From a virus (lineage: Duplodnaviria; Heunggongvirae; Uroviricota; Caudoviricetes), in the IMG/VR virus record IMGVR_UViG_2778261456_000009, positions 1 through 39,770 of that record: 39,770 bases of DNA; one strand, written 5' to 3'. Below the pieces are notes generated by a model. That model did not search any database. It saw only the letters and a list, made by a program, of their open reading frames with translations, and was not told the origin of the DNA. The position numbers and the translations under genes are program-made. Positions 17,046-39,036 of this stretch are shown here, in pieces. Within the stretch, counting starts at the first letter, position 1. Each line of letters begins with the position of its first letter.

Positions 17046-18402
17046 CAGGTTCGCCGATGCCGGGCGGCGCTTCGTCTTCGGCATTCTCTATGTCCTCGTC
17101 GGTAATGGATGCCCCGATGCCGGTTACGTCAGAATTTTCGCGCAAATCAGTCATAGCGGCTTTCAGTGTCATCAGACCATCACCCAGCGCTGTACTGATT
17201 GCGTTGGTGGTATTTAACGCCACCGTTGAACGATCGACATCAGACATTTGCCAGAGCGGGTTAAACTCAAACGTGAAATCATCCGGGAGCGGCTTGCCAA
17301 GTTCCGAACGATGCATGATGTCCAGTATCCGCCGCACCGGAAGACGTAAACGCCTCTCCTGCAACGAGCTTACCCGGTCGTAATAGTTGGCAAGGTCTGC
17401 ATCGCCGGTAGAAAATCCCTTCGGGGACTGTCCGAACAACCGCACCAGTGGGATACCAACAGCGCCACTAATCTGTTCTGCAAACTGTGAAAGGATGTCA
17501 TCCAGACCACTGAAGCTGTACTGATGGGTTTCAAACTTATCCCGCGAGTCCATGAGCGTCATGCCTTCATTGCTCTGGAACTGTCGAATCAGGTCAATAT
17601 TCTTCAGCAACGCTTCATACGCAGGACCACCAAGTGCGATAAGCTCGCGTAGCTTCTCCACGCTGTAGGTGCGCAGATGCGCTTTGTAGACCAGCTGCGC
17701 CGCGCCGACAGTAGCGCTGTCGAACGCGGTAAGACGATCCCAGATACGCTCCACAACCGACATTCCCCATTCGTTCTCGGTCATCTTCTGCTGAAATGGC
17801 AGCGTGACGCCATCAAAGCGAATCAGTCGACTGTGATGAATGCGCCAGGCAGGAATTCCCGTTGCGGTGGTCACCACATCGTAAAACTCAGGTTTACCCA
17901 GGTCCGGCCCCATATCTTTAATGCGGCGGGTCAGTACCGGGTCAATCATCCAGCGGTCGAGCGGGAGAATCCCCTTAAACTTGCCCTTACCGATGGTTTC
18001 GGGTCGCAGCGGGGTCATTGGTGCCTGCCCCTCAATCATGATGAAACCCACCGCGCCGCCGTAGAGGCGCGACCATTTCAGCACGTCATTCAGCGCATCC
18101 CAGATTTGCAACTCATCCAGTTGTGATTCGAGAATGCCACGATCTTTTGCATCAATTTCCGAAGTGATGCGAATGCCTTTGCGGGTCATATCATCCGGGA
18201 TAGCATCGACCGCTTCGCCGATGATCCAAGATGAACGATAGGACCATTCCACCAGCATGCGGTTACGACTGGTGAAATTAGCCCGGTAGGTGGATGCTGA
18301 GTGCTGGTTAGGTGCCTGCATCCCTACGCGGGCAATAAAATTCTCATAACCATCAGCTGTGGCCTGCGCAGTTCGCCGCAGGGCTTGTTTGTTTCGTGCC
18401 AT
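16936..18402 (-). CDS. Portal protein
   Basis: 488 aa, immediately downstream of terminase large subunit with TGATG overlap; acidic C-terminus. Confidence 0.75.
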   Translation of the reverse strand: MARNKQALRRTAQATADGYENFIARVGMQAPNQHSASTYRANFTSRNRMLVEWSYRSSWIIGEAVDAIPDDMTRKGIRITSEIDAKDRGILESQLDELQIWDALNDVLKWSRLYGGAVGFIMIEGQAPMTPLRPETIGKGKFKGILPLDRWMIDPVLTRRIKDMGPDLGKPEFYDVVTTATGIPAWRIHHSRLIRFDGVTLPFQQKMTENEWGMSVVERIWDRLTAFDSATVGAAQLVYKAHLRTYSVEKLRELIALGGPAYEALLKNIDLIRQFQSNEGMTLMDSRDKFETHQYSFSGLDDILSQFAEQISGAVGIPLVRLFGQSPKGFSTGDADLANYYDRVSSLQERRLRLPVRRILDIMHRSELGKPLPDDFTFEFNPLWQMSDVDRSTVALNTTNAISTALGDGLMTLKAAMTDLRENSDVTGIGASITDEDIENAEDEAPPGIGEPDDEPQEPSGGNPVSNQSTQDSAGGRGHRKWSLRWFK

Positions 18403-19805
18403 CAGGCCTGTCTCCCCAGCTGTTCCCAGATATCCAGCGATGTATCAATTGGCGCGAAGGCCATAATGAATGCGTCAGCAACGTTTGGTGACGGTATCTC
18501 GCGTTTTGCGAGGTCTTTTTTACTTTCGACCATCACACGTCCGTTACGGTCAAAATCGCGATGAGGTGTTGTCAGTTCCAGTTTCAGCTTTTCAAGCAAC
18601 GGACAACGAGAATCTATGCTGATCAGCTCATCCACAGGATACTGTTCTCCGTTGTTAATGGCGTTAAACGTATTTCTGAAACGGTCAGCCACCAGCCACC
18701 ATGCCTGAGCCTTAAGATTTGCGAAAAAGTCTTTGTTGGGGATGCCGTTGTATTCGTCATCTGGTTCATGCACACCAGCACCAGCGTTAAACCTCTGGTA
18801 ATTCACACGTCGCGCGTATGCATTCTCGCTCTTCCGGTCAGCGTTAATTTCAGAGAATTTAGCACCGGCAGACGCACCAACACCGATAGAGTCGTAAACA
18901 ATATCTGCTTCACGCTCCAGCGCCGCCTGATAAGTACGCTGGCAGCTCTTCAGTAATTCATCTTCTTTGGCCTTCCATTCGTCGGCCCAGAAAACAACGG
19001 ATCCGTGACGGTAAACGTTAGCGCACTTATCTGTACCACTGTCAGCCACGTCAAAGCCAATACGCTTTCTTCCACTGGGTTCGAAATTTAACGTTTTGTG
19101 CGCATCCACTGCGGCTTCTATCCAGGACAGTTTGATGATTGCCGCATCATCATCAGACTCCGGAACGCCCTCATACACATGTTTAAAACCATCCGGATCA
19201 CGGCGTCGCGCCGCGTCGATAACCTTAAGCATGGTGTCAGACAGAAACGGATTTTCGTCATAGTTAATTTTGCGGATGAGAGTGCCTTCGGGCGGATCAA
19301 CAACGAAGTTGCGCCAGACGAAATCAGTAACAAGTCCGGGGTTGAATATGAACCAGCATTCCGAACCCTCTTTACGGATCGTTGGCTCCAGAATTTTCCA
19401 CTGGTATTCCGTCAGTGCGTGGGCTTCTTCCAGCCACAACACATCGATCCCCTCCAGTGATTTAATTTCTTCGATGTTGCGCCATAATCCATAAAAAACA
19501 AATTCCGAGCCAGTAACCCGGTTAATGATTTTGTTGTTCAGAATCCGGAAACGGTGCCGCAGGCCAAACCTGTCTATCTGAATTTTGAGCAGGGTATAAA
19601 CCGACTCTTCGATTTTATTCTGGATCTGACGGGCACAACAAAAACGCAGGGTGTATTTATTCGACAGAAATATGGCAATGCCAGCGGCATCCCATGATTT
19701 TGACGATGACCGGCCACCATAAAGCACTTTGTTACGTGCCCGCGTAGTCCAGAAACTACGTAAAGCCGGATTAAGCGTCGCTTTGGATGTCAGAGTAGAA
19801 GTCAT
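18402..19805 (-). CDS. Terminase large subunit
   Basis: ATPase and nuclease regions recognisable by eye; track start (19913) is TTG and overlaps terS by 143 nt, so start moved to internal ATG (19805 or 19823). Confidence 0.85.
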   Translation of the reverse strand: MTSTLTSKATLNPALRSFWTTRARNKVLYGGRSSSKSWDAAGIAIFLSNKYTLRFCCARQIQNKIEESVYTLLKIQIDRFGLRHRFRILNNKIINRVTGSEFVFYGLWRNIEEIKSLEGIDVLWLEEAHALTEYQWKILEPTIRKEGSECWFIFNPGLVTDFVWRNFVVDPPEGTLIRKINYDENPFLSDTMLKVIDAARRRDPDGFKHVYEGVPESDDDAAIIKLSWIEAAVDAHKTLNFEPSGRKRIGFDVADSGTDKCANVYRHGSVVFWADEWKAKEDELLKSCQRTYQAALEREADIVYDSIGVGASAGAKFSEINADRKSENAYARRVNYQRFNAGAGVHEPDDEYNGIPNKDFFANLKAQAWWLVADRFRNTFNAINNGEQYPVDELISIDSRCPLLEKLKLELTTPHRDFDRNGRVMVESKKDLAKREIPSPNVADAFIMAFAPIDTSLDIWEQLGRQA

Positions 19806-20520
19806 TGAGGTCACGCTCTCCATTGCCATCATCAATACCTGCATCACGGCGAAGACGATCAGCCTCCAGAGACACCTTATCAGTGGCGGCCTTGCGGTAG
19901 GCTGTATCAGCAAATATTTTTCCTACCGTCGCAAGCGTGCCAACGATGGACTCAATACGAACTGTATTGCGCATCATTGCTTTCTCGGCGGCGCTGATAT
20001 TTTCCATCAGCATCTTCCTTTCCTGGTCCCCATTAGCATCTTCCAGCGACACCAGCCACCGACCAATATTCTCTGCAGCGACAAGGTTGTTAGCACGAAG
20101 GCGAAATAATTCGTCCTCGAGCGTCAACGCTTTAGCGTCCTCTATCACCTCATCTTTGAGCAGAAGGCGACGGGCATAACCACCGTGTTTTAATGCCTGC
20201 TGGTTACCGGGTTGGAATGGGTTAGTCGGGGGATCGGTACGCATTCCGCGTATCGGTTTCGTATCCAGTGTAGGTTCTGTTTTTGGTTGCGTACCTTTTT
20301 GTGTAAGGCCAGTAATGGCAGGCTTTCTGCTGGTACGCACTTTTCTTTTTTGCGTACCATTTTTGCAAACCTGCGTACCGCCACTGCGTACCCAACCAAG
20401 CTTTTTGGCCCTCTTCCTGATAGCCCCTTCTGTAACGCCGTATTTCTCGCCTATATCACGGAGGCTAAGGACTCCGGCCCGGTATGCCGATTCGATGGCC
20501 TCCCAGTCCGGTTTTGCCAT
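19771..20520 (-). CDS. Terminase small subunit
   Basis: 249 aa, N-terminal HTH-like segment (LSLRDIGEKYGVTEGAIRKRAKK); AAGAGGA RBS before ATG at 20520. Confidence 0.7.
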   Translation of the reverse strand: MAKPDWEAIESAYRAGVLSLRDIGEKYGVTEGAIRKRAKKLGWVRSGGTQVCKNGTQKRKVRTSRKPAITGLTQKGTQPKTEPTLDTKPIRGMRTDPPTNPFQPGNQQALKHGGYARRLLLKDEVIEDAKALTLEDELFRLRANNLVAAENIGRWLVSLEDANGDQERKMLMENISAAEKAMMRNTVRIESIVGTLATVGKIFADTAYRKAATDKVSLEADRLRRDAGIDDGNGERDLNDFYSDIQSDA

Positions 20521-33264: not shown

Positions 33265-33338
33265 TTAACTGACTATCCGAAACTGAATTTATGCCAGCAA
33301 TGGCAGGGATTCGCTCAACCTTAATTAAGGAGAAAAAC

Positions 33339-33608
33339 ATGATTACCAGTTATGAAGCCACTGTTGTTACTACTGATGACATTGTTCACGAAGTTACCCT
33401 GGAAGGAAAGCGTATTGGCTACGTGATTAAGACAGAAAATAAAGAAACCCCATTCACTGTGGTTGATATCGACGGTCCATCAGGCAACGTTAAAACACTT
33501 AACGATGGTGTTAAAAAAATGTGTCTGGTGCACATAGGAAAGAATCTGCCCGCAGAAAAAAAAAGCCGAATTTCTGGCAACTCTGATTGCAATGAAATTA
33601 AAAGGTGA
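33339..33608 (+). CDS. racC: RacC, with C-terminus altered by poly-A length
   Basis: MITSYEATVVTTDDIVHEVTLEGKRIGYVIKTENKETPFTVVDIDGPSGNVKT... matches recalled RacC to AEKK; A9 run (33556-33564) gives SRISGNSDCNEIKR instead of AEFLATLIAMKLKGEI; AAGGAG RBS. Confidence 0.7.
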   Translation: MITSYEATVVTTDDIVHEVTLEGKRIGYVIKTENKETPFTVVDIDGPSGNVKTLNDGVKKMCLVHIGKNLPAEKKSRISGNSDCNEIKR

Positions 33609-33613
33609 AATCT

Positions 33614-33644
33614 GAAAAAAAGAAAGCCTGCACACTGTGCAGGC
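33614..33644 (-). terminator. Antisense-oriented intrinsic terminator upstream of recE
   Basis: Stem GCCTGCAC/GTGCAGGC (8 bp, 3-nt loop) followed on the minus strand by TTTCTTTTTTTC; no U-run on plus strand. Confidence 0.4.
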
Positions 33645-33714: not shown

Positions 33715-36372
33715 ATGAGCACCGATAAACAAGTTTACCCACTGTATTACGAAGCAAAAAATGACAAAGTAAGAAAACGTCTCGGTATTAAAGGCGGTTT
33801 CTACTGGGCTGAAGCGAAAAAATTATCCATTGCCATCTCCCGTGGTGCTGTTGCGATTGACGATGCTGGCTACGATGAAGATGACTTTAAAAAACCTGTT
33901 CGCGTCAATTTGCCCGTTGTTGATGACCTTCCACCAGAAGGCGTATTTGATACGGAATTCTGCAACCGTTACGAAAAAGGCGGGGAAGATGGCATCACAA
34001 TGGTATTTATCGCGCCCTCATCCTCTGCGCAGGACAAACCAGCCAGCACTGACAATACCAATGTTAATGGCGAAGACATGACGGAGATTGAGGAGAATAT
34101 GCTACTCCCGATTTCCGGTCAGGAGCTGCCCATTCGCTGGCTTGCTCAACACGGCAGCGAAAAACCGGTAACGCACGTTTCACGCGACGAACTACAGGCA
34201 TTACACATTGCACGAGCTGAAGAACTACCAGCTGTTACTGCCCTGGCTGTTTCCCACAAAACCAGCCTGCTCGACCCGCTGGAAATTCGCGATCTCCACA
34301 AACTGGTGCGTGATACTGACAGAGTTTTCCCTAATCCAGGCAATTCAAGCCTGGGGCTGATGACTGCTTTTTTCGAAGCATACCTGGACGCAGACTACAC
34401 CGATCGCGGTCTGCTGACAAAAGAGTGGATGAAAGGAAATCGTGTTTCACGCATCACGCGCACGGCTTCCGGCGCTAATGCTGGCGGCGGGAACCTCACC
34501 GATCGCGGCGAAGGTTTCGTTCACGATCTGACGTCACTGGCGCGCGACGTAGCCACTGGCGTACTGGCTCGTTCAATGGACGTGGACATTTATAACCTTC
34601 ATCCGGCACACGCTAAACGTGTCGAGGAAATTATCGCTGAAAATAAACCGCCCTTTTCTGTTTTCCGCGACAAATTCATCACCATGCCTGGCGGGCTGGA
34701 TTATTCCCGCGCCATCGTGGTTGCGTCCGTAAAAGAAGCACCAATTGGGATCGAGGTTATCCCCGCACACGTCACTGAATATCTTAACAAAGTACTGACT
34801 GAAACTGATCATGCCAACCCTGATCCAGAAATCGTGGATATTGCCTGCGGTCGTTCCTCTGCCCCGATGCCGCAGCGTGTAACAGAAGAAGAAAAACAGG
34901 ATGATGAAGAAAAACTGCAACCATCTTGCGCAATGGCAGATGAACAGGCAACGGCTGAAACAGTGGAACCGGATGCAACTGAACATCATCAGGACACGCA
35001 GCCGCTGGATGCTCAGTCACAGGTAAATTCTGTTGATGCGAAATATCAGAAACTGCGGGCAGAACTCTATGAAGCCCGGAAAAACATTCCGCCCCAAAAT
35101 CCTGTCGATGCAGACAAATTACTGGCTGCCTCTCGCGGAGAATTTGTTGAAGGGATTAGCGACCCGAATGATCCGAAATGGGTTAAGGGGATCCAGACCC
35201 GCGATTCTGTGTACCAGAATCAGCCAGAAACGGAACAGAACGACCCAAATACGCAACAAAACGAGCCAGAAACGAAACAGCCTGAGCCAGTAGTGCAACA
35301 ACAGGAAACGGAGAAAGTTTGCACCGCCTGCGGTAAGGCTGGCGGCGGCAACTGTCCTGACTGTGGCGCGGTGATGGGCGACGCAACGTATCAGAAAACC
35401 TTTAATGAAGAAAATCAGAATGAATATCAGGAAAAAGGTCTGGAGGAAATGGAAGGTGCTGAACATCCGCACAATGAGAATGCTGGCAGCGATCCGCATC
35501 GCGATTGCAGTGATGAAACTGGCGAAGTCGCAGATACCGTAATCGTAGAAGACATAGAGCCAGGTATTTATTACGGAATTTCGAATGAGAATTACCACGC
35601 GGGTCCCGGTGTCAGTAAGTCTCAGCTCGATGACATTGCTGATACTCCGGCACTGTATTTGTGGCGTAAAAATGCCCCCGTGGACACTACAAAGACAAAA
35701 ACGCTCGATTTAGGAACCGCTTTCCACTGTCGGGTACTTGAACCGGAAGAATTCAGTAACCGCTTTATCGTAGCACCTGAATTTAACCGCCGTACAAACG
35801 CCGGAAAAGAAGAAGAGAAAGCGTTTCTGATGGAATGCGCAAGCACAGGAAAAACGGTTATCACTGCGGAAGAAGGCCGGAAAATTGAACTCATGTATCA
35901 AAGCGTTATGGCTTTGCCGCTGGGGCAATGGCTTGTTGAAAGCGCCGGACACGCTGAATCATCAATTTACTGGGAAGATCCGGAAACAGGAATTTTGTGT
36001 CGGTGCCGTCCGGACAAAATTATTCCTGAATTTCACTGGATCATGGACGTGAAAACCACAGCGGATATTCAACGATTCAAAACGGCTTATTACGACTACC
36101 GCTATCACGTTCAGGATGCATTCTACAGTGACGGTTATGAAGCACAGTTTGGCGTGCTGCCAACTTTCGTTTTTCTGGTTGCCAGCACAACTGTTGAATG
36201 CGGACGTTACCCGGTTGAGATTTTCATGATGGGCGAAGAAGCAAAACTGGCAGGCCAGCAGGAATATCACCGCAATCTGAGGACCCTGGCTGACTGCCTG
36301 AATACCGATGAATGGCCAGCTATTAAAACGTTATCACTGCCCCGCTGGGCTAAGGAGTATGCAAATGACTAA
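33715..36372 (+). CDS. recE: RecE, exonuclease VIII
   Basis: 885 aa; from about residue 110 near-identical to recalled K-12 RecE, including C-terminal nuclease domain; first about 100 aa diverge from recalled sequence. Confidence 0.95.
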
Positions 36373-37174
36373 GCAACCACCTATCGCAAAAGCCGATCTG
36401 CAAAAAACCCAGGGAAACCGTGCACCAGCAGCAGTAAAAAATAACGACGTGATCAGCTTTATTAATCAGCCATCAATGAAAGAGCAACTGGCAGCAGCTC
36501 TCCCACGCCATATGACGGCTGAACGAATGATACGTATCGCCACCACAGAAATTCGTAAGGTTCCGGCGCTAGGAAACTGTGACACCATGAGTTTTGTCAG
36601 TGCGATCGTTCAGTGTTCACAGCTCGGCCTTGAGCCAGGTAGCGCCCTCGGCCACGCATATTTACTGCCTTTTGGTAATAAAAACGAAAAGAGCGGTAAA
36701 AAGAACGTTCAGCTAATCATTGGTTATCGCGGCATGATTGATCTGGCTCGCCGTTCTGGTCAAATCGCCAGCCTGTCAGCCCGTGTTGTCCGTGAAGGTG
36801 ACGAGTTTAGTTTTGAATTTGGCCTTGATGAAAAGTTAATACACCGCCCGGGAGAAAACGAAGATGCACCAGTGACCCACGTCTATGCTGTCGCAAGACT
36901 GAAAGACGGAGGGACTCAGTTTGAAGTTATGACGCGCAAACAGATTGAACTGGTGCGCAGCCAGAGTAAGGCTGGTAATAACGGGCCATGGGTAACTCAC
37001 TGGGAAGAAATGGCAAAAAAAACGGCTATTCGTCGCCTGTTTAAATACCTGCCCGTATCAATTGAGATCCAGCGCGCGGTATCAATGGATGAAAAGGAAC
37101 CACTGACAATCGATCCGGCAGATTCCTCTGTATTAACCGGGGAATACAGTGTAATCGATAATTCAGAGGAATAA
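36365..37174 (+). CDS. recT: RecT, single-strand annealing protein
   Basis: 269 aa starting [24 protein letters not shown]..., matching recalled RecT; ATG overlaps recE stop; track start is over-extended. Confidence 0.95.
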
Positions 37175-37706: not shown

Positions 37707-37994
37707 ATGGCAATGAATCTTGTGACACTCAAAACGTGGGGGAAACTCAGATATCCGGATAACCCACCATCAATATCAACGCTGAGACGATGGGCAAGGA
37801 ATGGAAACATTTATCCTGCACCTGAACTACACGGGAGGAGTTACAGGGTGGTTCCGGAAGCTTTCTATATCAACCCAAATAAGGTTGATACCGATATAAC
37901 ACACCATCAACCTAATGGGCGACAAGGGAGAGACGGTCCGTTACTGGAGAAGTTAAAACATGCAGCGGAAAAAATACGATCCCAATTTGCCTAA
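37707..37994 (+). CDS. xis: Excisionase (Xis-like)
   Basis: N-terminus (TLKTWGKLRYPDNPPSISTLRRWARNGNIYPAPELHGRSYRVV) parallels lambda Xis; AAGAGG RBS; 3' end overlaps int start as in lambda. Confidence 0.6.
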   Translation: MAMNLVTLKTWGKLRYPDNPPSISTLRRWARNGNIYPAPELHGRSYRVVPEAFYINPNKVDTDITHHQPNGRQGRDGPLLEKLKHAAEKIRSQFA

Positions 37995-39036
37995 AAACTT
38001 AACATATCGAAGGAGGGACAAAGCATATTACTGGCGCAACCCTCTGACGAAAGAAGAATTTACACTAGGTAAAATTTCAAGAAGAGATGCAGTAGCGCAG
38101 GCAATTGAAGCAAATCATTATATATACAAAAACTACTCTCCTGCTGCCTTAATTGAAAAACTTAAAGGGTTCGACTCATTTACTATGGCAGACTGGATTG
38201 AACGTTACAAAACGATTCTTATAAGGAGAAAAGTGTCCAGAAATACTTATAAAATTCGGGTAAATCAACTGGAGACAATAAAAGAAAAATTAGGAGGGAT
38301 TTTACTGACAGAAATAACCACTCGCCATATTGCCGAGTTTCTTGATTTGTGGATTGAAGGAGGGAAAAACACGATGGCAGGATCAATGCGTTCTGTGTTA
38401 TCTGATATGTTCCGCGAGGCCATTGTTGAAGGACGTATATCTCAAAATCCAGTAACGCCAACAAGAGCACCGAAAATAGTAGTTACAAGAGAACGGCTGA
38501 AACTAAAGACATACAACTGCATCAGGGAGGCAGCAGATCAACTTCCGGCATGGTTCCCATTAGCTATGGATTTAGCCCTTGTAACAGGACAACGTCGCGA
38601 AGACATAACGAATATGCGGTTCAGTGATATTTATGATGACCGTCTCCACATCAGGCAAATTAAGACAGGAATGATGATTGCTATCCCTCTGTCACTCAGC
38701 CTTCCTGTCGCTGGTCTACGGCTTGGTACAGTAGTTGAACGATGCCGCCTGGTAAGCCGGGGAGATTATCTAATCAGTGCCGGGATTAGAAAAAACAGCC
38801 CTGACGGCAGCATTCACCCGGATGGCCTGACAAAAAAATTTGTCGCAGCCAGAAAATTAACAGGTATCCAGTTCAGTGAAAACCCACCAACTTTTCACGA
38901 GATCAGAAGTCTGGCTGGACGATTGTACAAAGAAACATGTGGAGAAGAATTTGCCCAGCGCCTACTTGGTCACACATCGGAGAAGACAACAAAAATGTAT
39001 CTTGATGAGCGAGAAAAAACGTACTTACTGCTCTGA
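37960..39036 (+). CDS. int: Tyrosine integrase, lambda Int family
   Basis: 358 aa; alignable by eye to lambda Int (PPNL, FGLG, catalytic region with [11 protein letters not shown] and [13 protein letters not shown]). Confidence 0.9.

Follow-up and report, generated by a model that had tools for sequence, protein, structure and literature searches.

A probable replication-slippage frameshift allele of racC at an apparent homopolymer hot spot in a Rac-type prophage

RacC of Escherichia coli K-12 (b1351, RACC_ECOLI; NF007306, phrog_4778) is a protein of 91 residues encoded in the gene order kilR-ydaE-racC-recE-recT. In a study of retron toxins no other protein blocked RcaT, the toxin of retron-Sen2, as strongly as this 91-aa RacC, which was also active against the toxin of retron-Eco9; RecE was found to trigger these retrons through degradation of msDNA, and the authors termed racC-recE a linked blocker-trigger pair (bioRxiv 10.1101/2020.06.22.160242). 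Pfam contains no family for RacC. In a fold search with a confident model of the canonical protein, even the best PDB match (E 0.24) was not significant, and BFVD gave weak matches only, to uncharacterised phage proteins. A search of the literature for a report of a racC frameshift found nothing relevant.

Genes interrupted by poly(A) runs in Buchnera and Blochmannia are partly rescued by transcriptional slippage. The racC gene described here differs from such slippage-rescued genes in two ways: it needs a -1 or +2 correction rather than the favoured +1, and its interrupted form is rare rather than fixed. Sense-strand runs of at least nine A followed by an open downstream frame, as in this racC, are also known from tssM of C. 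rodentium (PMC4256274) and from other ORFs disrupted at 9A runs (Baranov et al. 2005, PMC1088944), which likewise count among the genes partly rescued by transcriptional slippage. A run of nine is also found at programmed slippage sites, namely Thermus dnaX (A9), Shigella mxiE (T9) and the A-runs of IS elements, but in those cases the run length and a two-ORF layout are conserved among homologues, whereas the conserved state of racC is A8 within a single ORF. Phase-variation contingency loci resemble racC in having a homopolymer inside an ORF that varies among close relatives; the racC tract, however, is a short poly(A), and its OFF alleles are a small minority.

The window, by which we mean the whole stretch of 39,770 nt that was analysed (positions 1-39770), is by its gene content a complete-looking Rac-type lambdoid prophage. 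Terminase and structural genes lie on the minus strand (large terminase, 18402-19913), and the window also encodes an HTH repressor, a YdaT-like protein and a replication protein resembling DnaC. The plus-strand genes then run in the order kilR, ydaE, racC, recE, recT and integrase (37960-39036), so that racC occupies the same position as in K-12, with ydaE/kilR on one side and recE-recT on the other, in an early-left operon of the Rac type. The recE gene (33715-36372, plus strand; exonuclease VIII, 885 aa; PF06630 and PF12684) is intact. The best match to the window in a complete RefSeq E. coli genome is 97.9% identical over the right-hand 9.8 kb, and none is identical. Among the loci compared, the search for an A8 counterpart in the same prophage background gave nothing closer than 97-98.8%. 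The window is a mosaic whose right arm is matched by no complete RefSeq E. coli genome above about 98%.

As it stands, racC extends on the plus strand from the ATG at 33339 to the TGA at 33606-33608 and encodes 89 aa. A Shine-Dalgarno sequence, AAGGAG (33327-33332), is located 6 nt ahead of this ATG. An in-frame ATG further upstream, at 33291, would give an ORF of 105 aa (107 aa in A8 alleles), but we prefer the start at 33339 because of the strong Shine-Dalgarno sequence and because the K-12 annotation has the same start. Several gene callers and older annotations, e.g., those of E. coli 042 and APEC O1, use the longer form. The product from 33339 is MITSYEATVVTTDDIVHEVTLEGKRIGYVIKTENKETPFTVVDIDGPSGNVKTLNDGVKKMCLVHIGKNLPAEKK-SRISGNSDCNEIKR, i.e., MITSYE...LPAEKKSRISGNSDCNEIKR, and it ends in ...AEKK-SRISGNSDCNEIKR.

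The sequence-only reading had reported nine consecutive A inside racC at 33556-33564, and direct reading of the plus strand bears this out: the tract reads ...CTGCCCGCAG AAAAAAAAA GCCGAATTTCTGG..., in the immediate context GCAG-AAAAAAAAA-GCCGAA, and is one nucleotide longer than the A8 of canonical racC. Its nine bases supply the last two positions of the codon for Glu73, the codons for Lys74 and Lys75, and the base that opens the shifted codon AGC. No homopolymer in the window is longer, and no other reaches nine. In a first-order Markov simulation of 40 kb, nine-A/T runs arise by chance at a mean of 0.9 per window; the length by itself is not improbable, and the significance of the tract lies in the comparison of its frame with that of homologues.

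Residues 1-75 are canonical (95% identical to the first 75 residues of K-12 RacC), and the final 14, SRISGNSDCNEIKR, are out of frame, replacing the last 16 residues of the K-12 protein with an unrelated sequence. Deleting one A in silico changes the end to ...AEKKAEFLATLIAMKLKGEI, with the tail AEKK-AEFLATLIAMKLKGEI, a total length of 91 aa and a stop at 33613-33615. The earlier reading had taken this form to match the 91-aa RacC, and K-12 racC (NP_415867.1) indeed has A8, 91 aa and exactly the same tail. The canonical C-terminal coding remnant, AEFLATLIAMKLKGEI plus TGA, is still intact in the other frame of the window (33565-33615, plus strand), one base out of register.

Two RefSeq pseudogenes, ACAZ81_RS09735 (CEA601S) and JMX41_RS14615 (MSB1_4I), are identical to the window over 341 nt, the A9 included. 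They differ from it in the flanking prophage, and their recE and recT are 97.4% identical to those of the window. In these two complete genomes the A9 loci are one SNP apart in 6.3 kb.

Several comparisons bear on which C-terminus is functional. In full-length homologues down to 67% identity the length of the canonical tail and its amphipathic pattern are both kept, as in DRIMATLIEMELKGEI, DRFFAAMIAMKSKGEL and YEFLATQIAMKLAGEIRR, and the conserved pattern can be written x-x-[FIV]-[LMF]-A-x-[LM]-I-x-M-[KE]-L-x-G-E-[IL]. Within the 45 nt 3' of the run, where close relatives have few variable sites, the most frequent polymorphism, CTG/CTA/CTT, is silent in the canonical frame and causes D/N/Y changes in the A9 frame. 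The NCBIfam model NF007306 and phrog_4778 match the A9 product at profile positions 1-77 of 91 only; the NF007306 score is 167.9, below the cut-off of 171, against 202.3 over positions 1-91 for the A8 form. The A9 product therefore falls short of a full-length RacC on that family model (91 positions, 171 bits), although the gene itself is an allele of racC. From this pattern of conservation, the canonical A8 frame appears to be the selected one.

An AlphaFold (AF2) model of canonical RacC (pLDDT 85.6, pTM 0.74) has five predicted strands in residues 5-51 followed by helices at 54-69 and 72-88. In this model a shift after Lys75 would swap nearly the entire second helix for a tail rich in Gly, Ser and Asn. 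The model of the A9 product has a pLDDT of 40, a value obtained from an alignment far less diverse than the canonical one and therefore given no weight as evidence on the frameshift. Most likely, judging by tail conservation and the predicted fold, A9 inactivates or strongly impairs RacC, although the part up to residue 75, with its sheet and first helix, might still be active to some extent.

We determined how often the tract departs from A8 in E. coli genomes with probes of 81-87 nt. Among 1575 complete genomes matched by the K-12-type probe, A9 occurs in 34 exactly and in six more with one SNP (the latter inferred from the span of the match), A10 in 15 (one of them verified) and A7 in 15; the rest have A8. 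The window-type probe matched 321 complete genomes, of which two have A9, about two have A7 (again inferred from span) and nearly all the rest have A8. Three IMG/VR contigs have A9 and at least 120 have A8. In complete genomes A8 thus makes up about 95% of racC copies, the other lengths roughly 4-5%, and A9 about 2-3%. At the protein level, the two canonical (A8) forms are each on at least 1000 contigs, compared with 232 for the K-12-type A9 protein (P0121), 616 for K-12-type A7, 87 for window-type A7 and 112 for K-12-type A10. PGAP marks the A7, A9 and A10 alleles alike as "frameshifted". The comparison with other Rac-type prophages that had been proposed as a check on the earlier reading thus gives A8 as the dominant form and A7, A9 and A10 as minority alleles.

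The change in length is recurrent. At least three DNA haplotypes of racC, 15-20 SNPs apart in 262 nt, carry A9, and proteins with an A9-type tail have 12 or more different N-terminal backgrounds. On the K-12 haplotype alone, with identical flanks, A7, A8, A9 and A10 are all found. Two pairs of loci differ in the tract with next to nothing else changed: an A9 locus and an A8 locus (L001 and L132) are 99.82% identical over 5.1 kb, a second such pair (L014 and L030) is 99.94% identical over 6.3 kb, and in both pairs the tract is the sole gap. Several lengths therefore coexist among close relatives, and on these alignments the A8 tract of racC is evidently a recurrent mutational hot spot. Homologues with the SRISGNS-type terminus, which the sequence-only reading had named, along with unambiguous A9 reads, as grounds against its proposal, do exist in a formal sense, but all of them are tract-length variants of near-identical genes; they show that the mutation recurs, not that RacC has a second working C-terminus.

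Many of the names of K-12-type genomes with A9 or A10 (H141-H189) point to one clone (ST361 or "361"; the series 98193/98202 and 2024CK/2023CK). In these ST361-like genomes racC is at similar chromosomal positions, and both A9 and A10 occur inside the group. Such a mixture could result from rapid drift in an already broken gene or from long-read homopolymer miscalls.

Taken together, we consider it likely that the window carries an ordinary frameshift allele of racC, produced by replication slippage at a recurrent homopolymer hot spot and probably inactivating RacC: a one-base change in the length of the run breaks a frame that homologues conserve. Replication slippage would have lengthened the A8 of the codons GAA-AAA-AAA to A9. 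The ribosome would then leave the conserved frame after Lys75, add 14 unrelated polar residues and stop 7 nt short of the usual position. Since this would remove almost all of the amphipathic helix predicted at the C-terminus (72-88), RacC is most probably non-functional or weakened; recE and recT next to it are unaffected. Like A7 and A10, the A9 change has arisen repeatedly in Rac-type prophages, and the persistence of these lengths at a few per cent is probably due to weak selection on a gene that is silent in the lysogen. Events of this kind are routine, RefSeq already marks this very allele as frameshifted, and no new mechanism is needed.

The added value of the locus is limited to the link between RacC and retrons and to the natural series of tract lengths from A7 to A10. 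A prophage with an intact recE and a broken racC is predicted to be exposed to RcaT-type retron defence on induction or on infection of a new host. The A7-A10 alleles, at a few per cent of E. coli, form a natural set for testing this prediction, and the series is also suited to measuring how well E. coli RNA polymerase and ribosomes rescue +1 versus -1 homopolymer frameshifts. For annotation, the racC of the window is better called a frameshifted allele or pseudogene than an 89- or 105-aa "hypothetical protein", with the 91-aa protein as the functional reference.

The least unlikely alternative attributes the additional A of the window to faulty sequencing or assembly, with A8 and a complete 91-aa RacC in the organism itself. 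Runs of 8-10 identical bases are well known for such errors, several public A9 assemblies also carry a fragmented recE, clonal-looking complete genomes have A9 in some members and A10 in others, which may be partly technical, and the exact window-type A9 stretch is found in only two of 5426 complete genomes. Yet the identical 270-nt racC with A9 is present in NZ_CP166713 (France) and NZ_LR898874 (Australia), in both of which PGAP labels it "frameshifted", and also in a SPAdes-style contig sequenced at about 307x (L013, NODE_12_length_228846_cov_307), in the drafts GCA_001361455 (with 17 further similar places) and GCA_001359635, and in one IMG/VR contig. The exact 89-aa protein of the window (P0122) occurs on 61 contigs (125 index blocks), and the K-12-type A9 protein is more abundant still, as given above. 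The identical A9 copies lie in at least three flanking backgrounds, with recE 97.4-98.8% identical to that of the window.

As far as the sequence records go, A9 is certainly a real, heritable allele that exists in nature, since the same haplotype has been obtained in unrelated projects, among them metagenome assemblies and a set of about 18 drafts, and in different prophage backgrounds, and the A9 of the window can be explained without any error. Of the options that the sequence-only reading had left side by side, a real slippage-prone allele has accordingly gained support, from independent assemblies, several haplotypes and the A7, A9 and A10 alleles in hundreds of contigs. An assembly error is now the less likely of the two, and we regard it as improbable for the window given the same A9 racC DNA in independent assemblies, even if some A9 entries in databases may be technical.

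Beside A9 racC, recE is split into two or three ORFs in three loci (L007, GCA_053109875; L008, GCA_053109975; L012, GCA_053109935). The splits suggest homopolymer errors there and call for caution with tract counts from public assemblies. Some records of the window's 89-aa protein (CES71868.1, CFX81871.1 and others) were deposited as "Salmonella enterica serovar Typhi" in draft assemblies of the series GCA_0013xxxxx; they may be mislabelled or contaminated, as the locus is a Rac-type E. coli prophage.

A further alternative accepts the allele as real and sees in the A8 tract, perhaps with an A7 run upstream of it, a selected contingency switch that toggles RacC independently of RecE, which would stay expressed. 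If so, populations of Rac-type prophages, or their hosts, would hedge between disarming and triggering retron abortive infection. The pairing of racC as blocker, and RacC as the strongest blocker of RcaT, with recE as trigger (bioRxiv 10.1101/2020.06.22.160242) would give such a switch a rationale, the lengths from A7 to A10 occur among near-identical backgrounds, the A8 run is kept although Glu-Lys-Lys can be encoded without a homopolymer, and the A7 run, 36 nt upstream, varies as well. Against this, only about 4-5% of copies have an OFF length, a poly(A) of 8-9 is short beside classical contingency tracts, and in decaying Rac prophages the tract drifts further, with A9 or A10 beside a truncated recE, which has the look of neutral decay. 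A run in recT for which no such rationale exists also has a frameshifted relative (one of 14), as expected from plain mutational bias. We therefore think a selected switch very unlikely and keep to the reading of a plain mutational hot spot under weak selection.

The A7 run (33513-33519, plus strand; codons V-K-K-M) has its normal length in the window. In the O157:H7 lineage and other strains it gains one A, giving ...GVKKNVSGAHRKESARRKKSRISGNS..., i.e., ...GVKKNVSGAHRKESARRKKSRISGNSDCNEI[KR]R. Three such A7-run variants (P0023, P0169 and P0170) are found on 44, 30 and 17 contigs, respectively. Some proteins (P0175, P0073 and P0076) leave the frame at the first run and regain the canonical tail at the second. 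By sequence comparison the A7 run is a second frameshift hot spot in other strains. The run in recT is an in-frame A8 (37015-37022, plus strand; codons A-K-K-T). In most related prophages it is interrupted as AAAGAAAA; where it is uninterrupted, one of the 14 loci has A9 and a recT frameshift (L041, IMGVR_UViG_2718218305_000005).

The last possibility, also raised by the sequence-only reading, is that A9 is used for recoding, i.e., that slippage by RNA polymerase or a +1 shift by the ribosome brings enough of the product back into frame for the gene to work, as in tssM of C. rodentium or the poly(A)-interrupted genes of endosymbionts. In many bacteria slippage becomes noticeable once an A or T run reaches nine, and ORFs broken at 9A runs may regain their frame in the mRNA (PMC1088944). 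The racC tract is a sense-strand run of this length, its last Lys codon still pairs fully after a move of one base forward (AAA-A), and the canonical tail is intact in the other frame. However, restoring the frame requires a transcript that has lost one A or gained two (-1 or +2), or a +1 ribosomal shift. Across the E. coli transcriptome, slippage at A/T runs consists mainly of single insertions, and deletions inside homopolymers are rare (PMC5574713); in a reporter study of E. coli RNA polymerase, restoration of the deletion type was not seen at the poly(A) runs tested (PMC6260861). The commonest slip, +1, would lead to a dead-end product of 82 aa. At the ribosome, a -1 slip would give ...KKKPNFWQL and then a stop, and only +1 would restore RacC.

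Nor does the surrounding sequence have the features of a programmed site. We found no stimulatory structure 3' of the run, where 61 nt fold no better than shuffled sequences (z -0.24), and no pause codon or internal Shine-Dalgarno sequence at the tract, the next codon being AGC. Both marks of programmed ribosomal frameshifting, a stimulatory element and a conserved trans-frame product, are absent from racC, as is the conserved run length with a split-ORF layout that marks programmed slippage; A9 is instead scattered across backgrounds alongside A7 and A10. With A9 unconserved, no structure beside it and a disfavoured -1 or +2 correction, the proposal of a programmed transcriptional or translational slippage site is unsupported and can be set aside as highly improbable. 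A small fraction of corrected RacC from A9 is possible, and the A7 allele, which needs +1, should by the same reasoning be rescued better than A9.

The one clear hairpin nearby is in the racC-recE spacer (33626-33644; -14.5 kcal/mol, z -3.0). It is GC-rich and lies about 60 nt from the run, too remote to stimulate frameshifting. Read on the minus strand, where the terminator-like site spans 33646-33624, the hairpin is followed by a T-rich tail, TCTTTTTTTC, and it looks like a candidate intrinsic terminator for antisense transcription. The K-12 spacer has a different inverted repeat in the same place (AGCCTGCGTATGGCGCAGGCT), so that in the racC-recE spacer the structure, but not the sequence, appears to be conserved.
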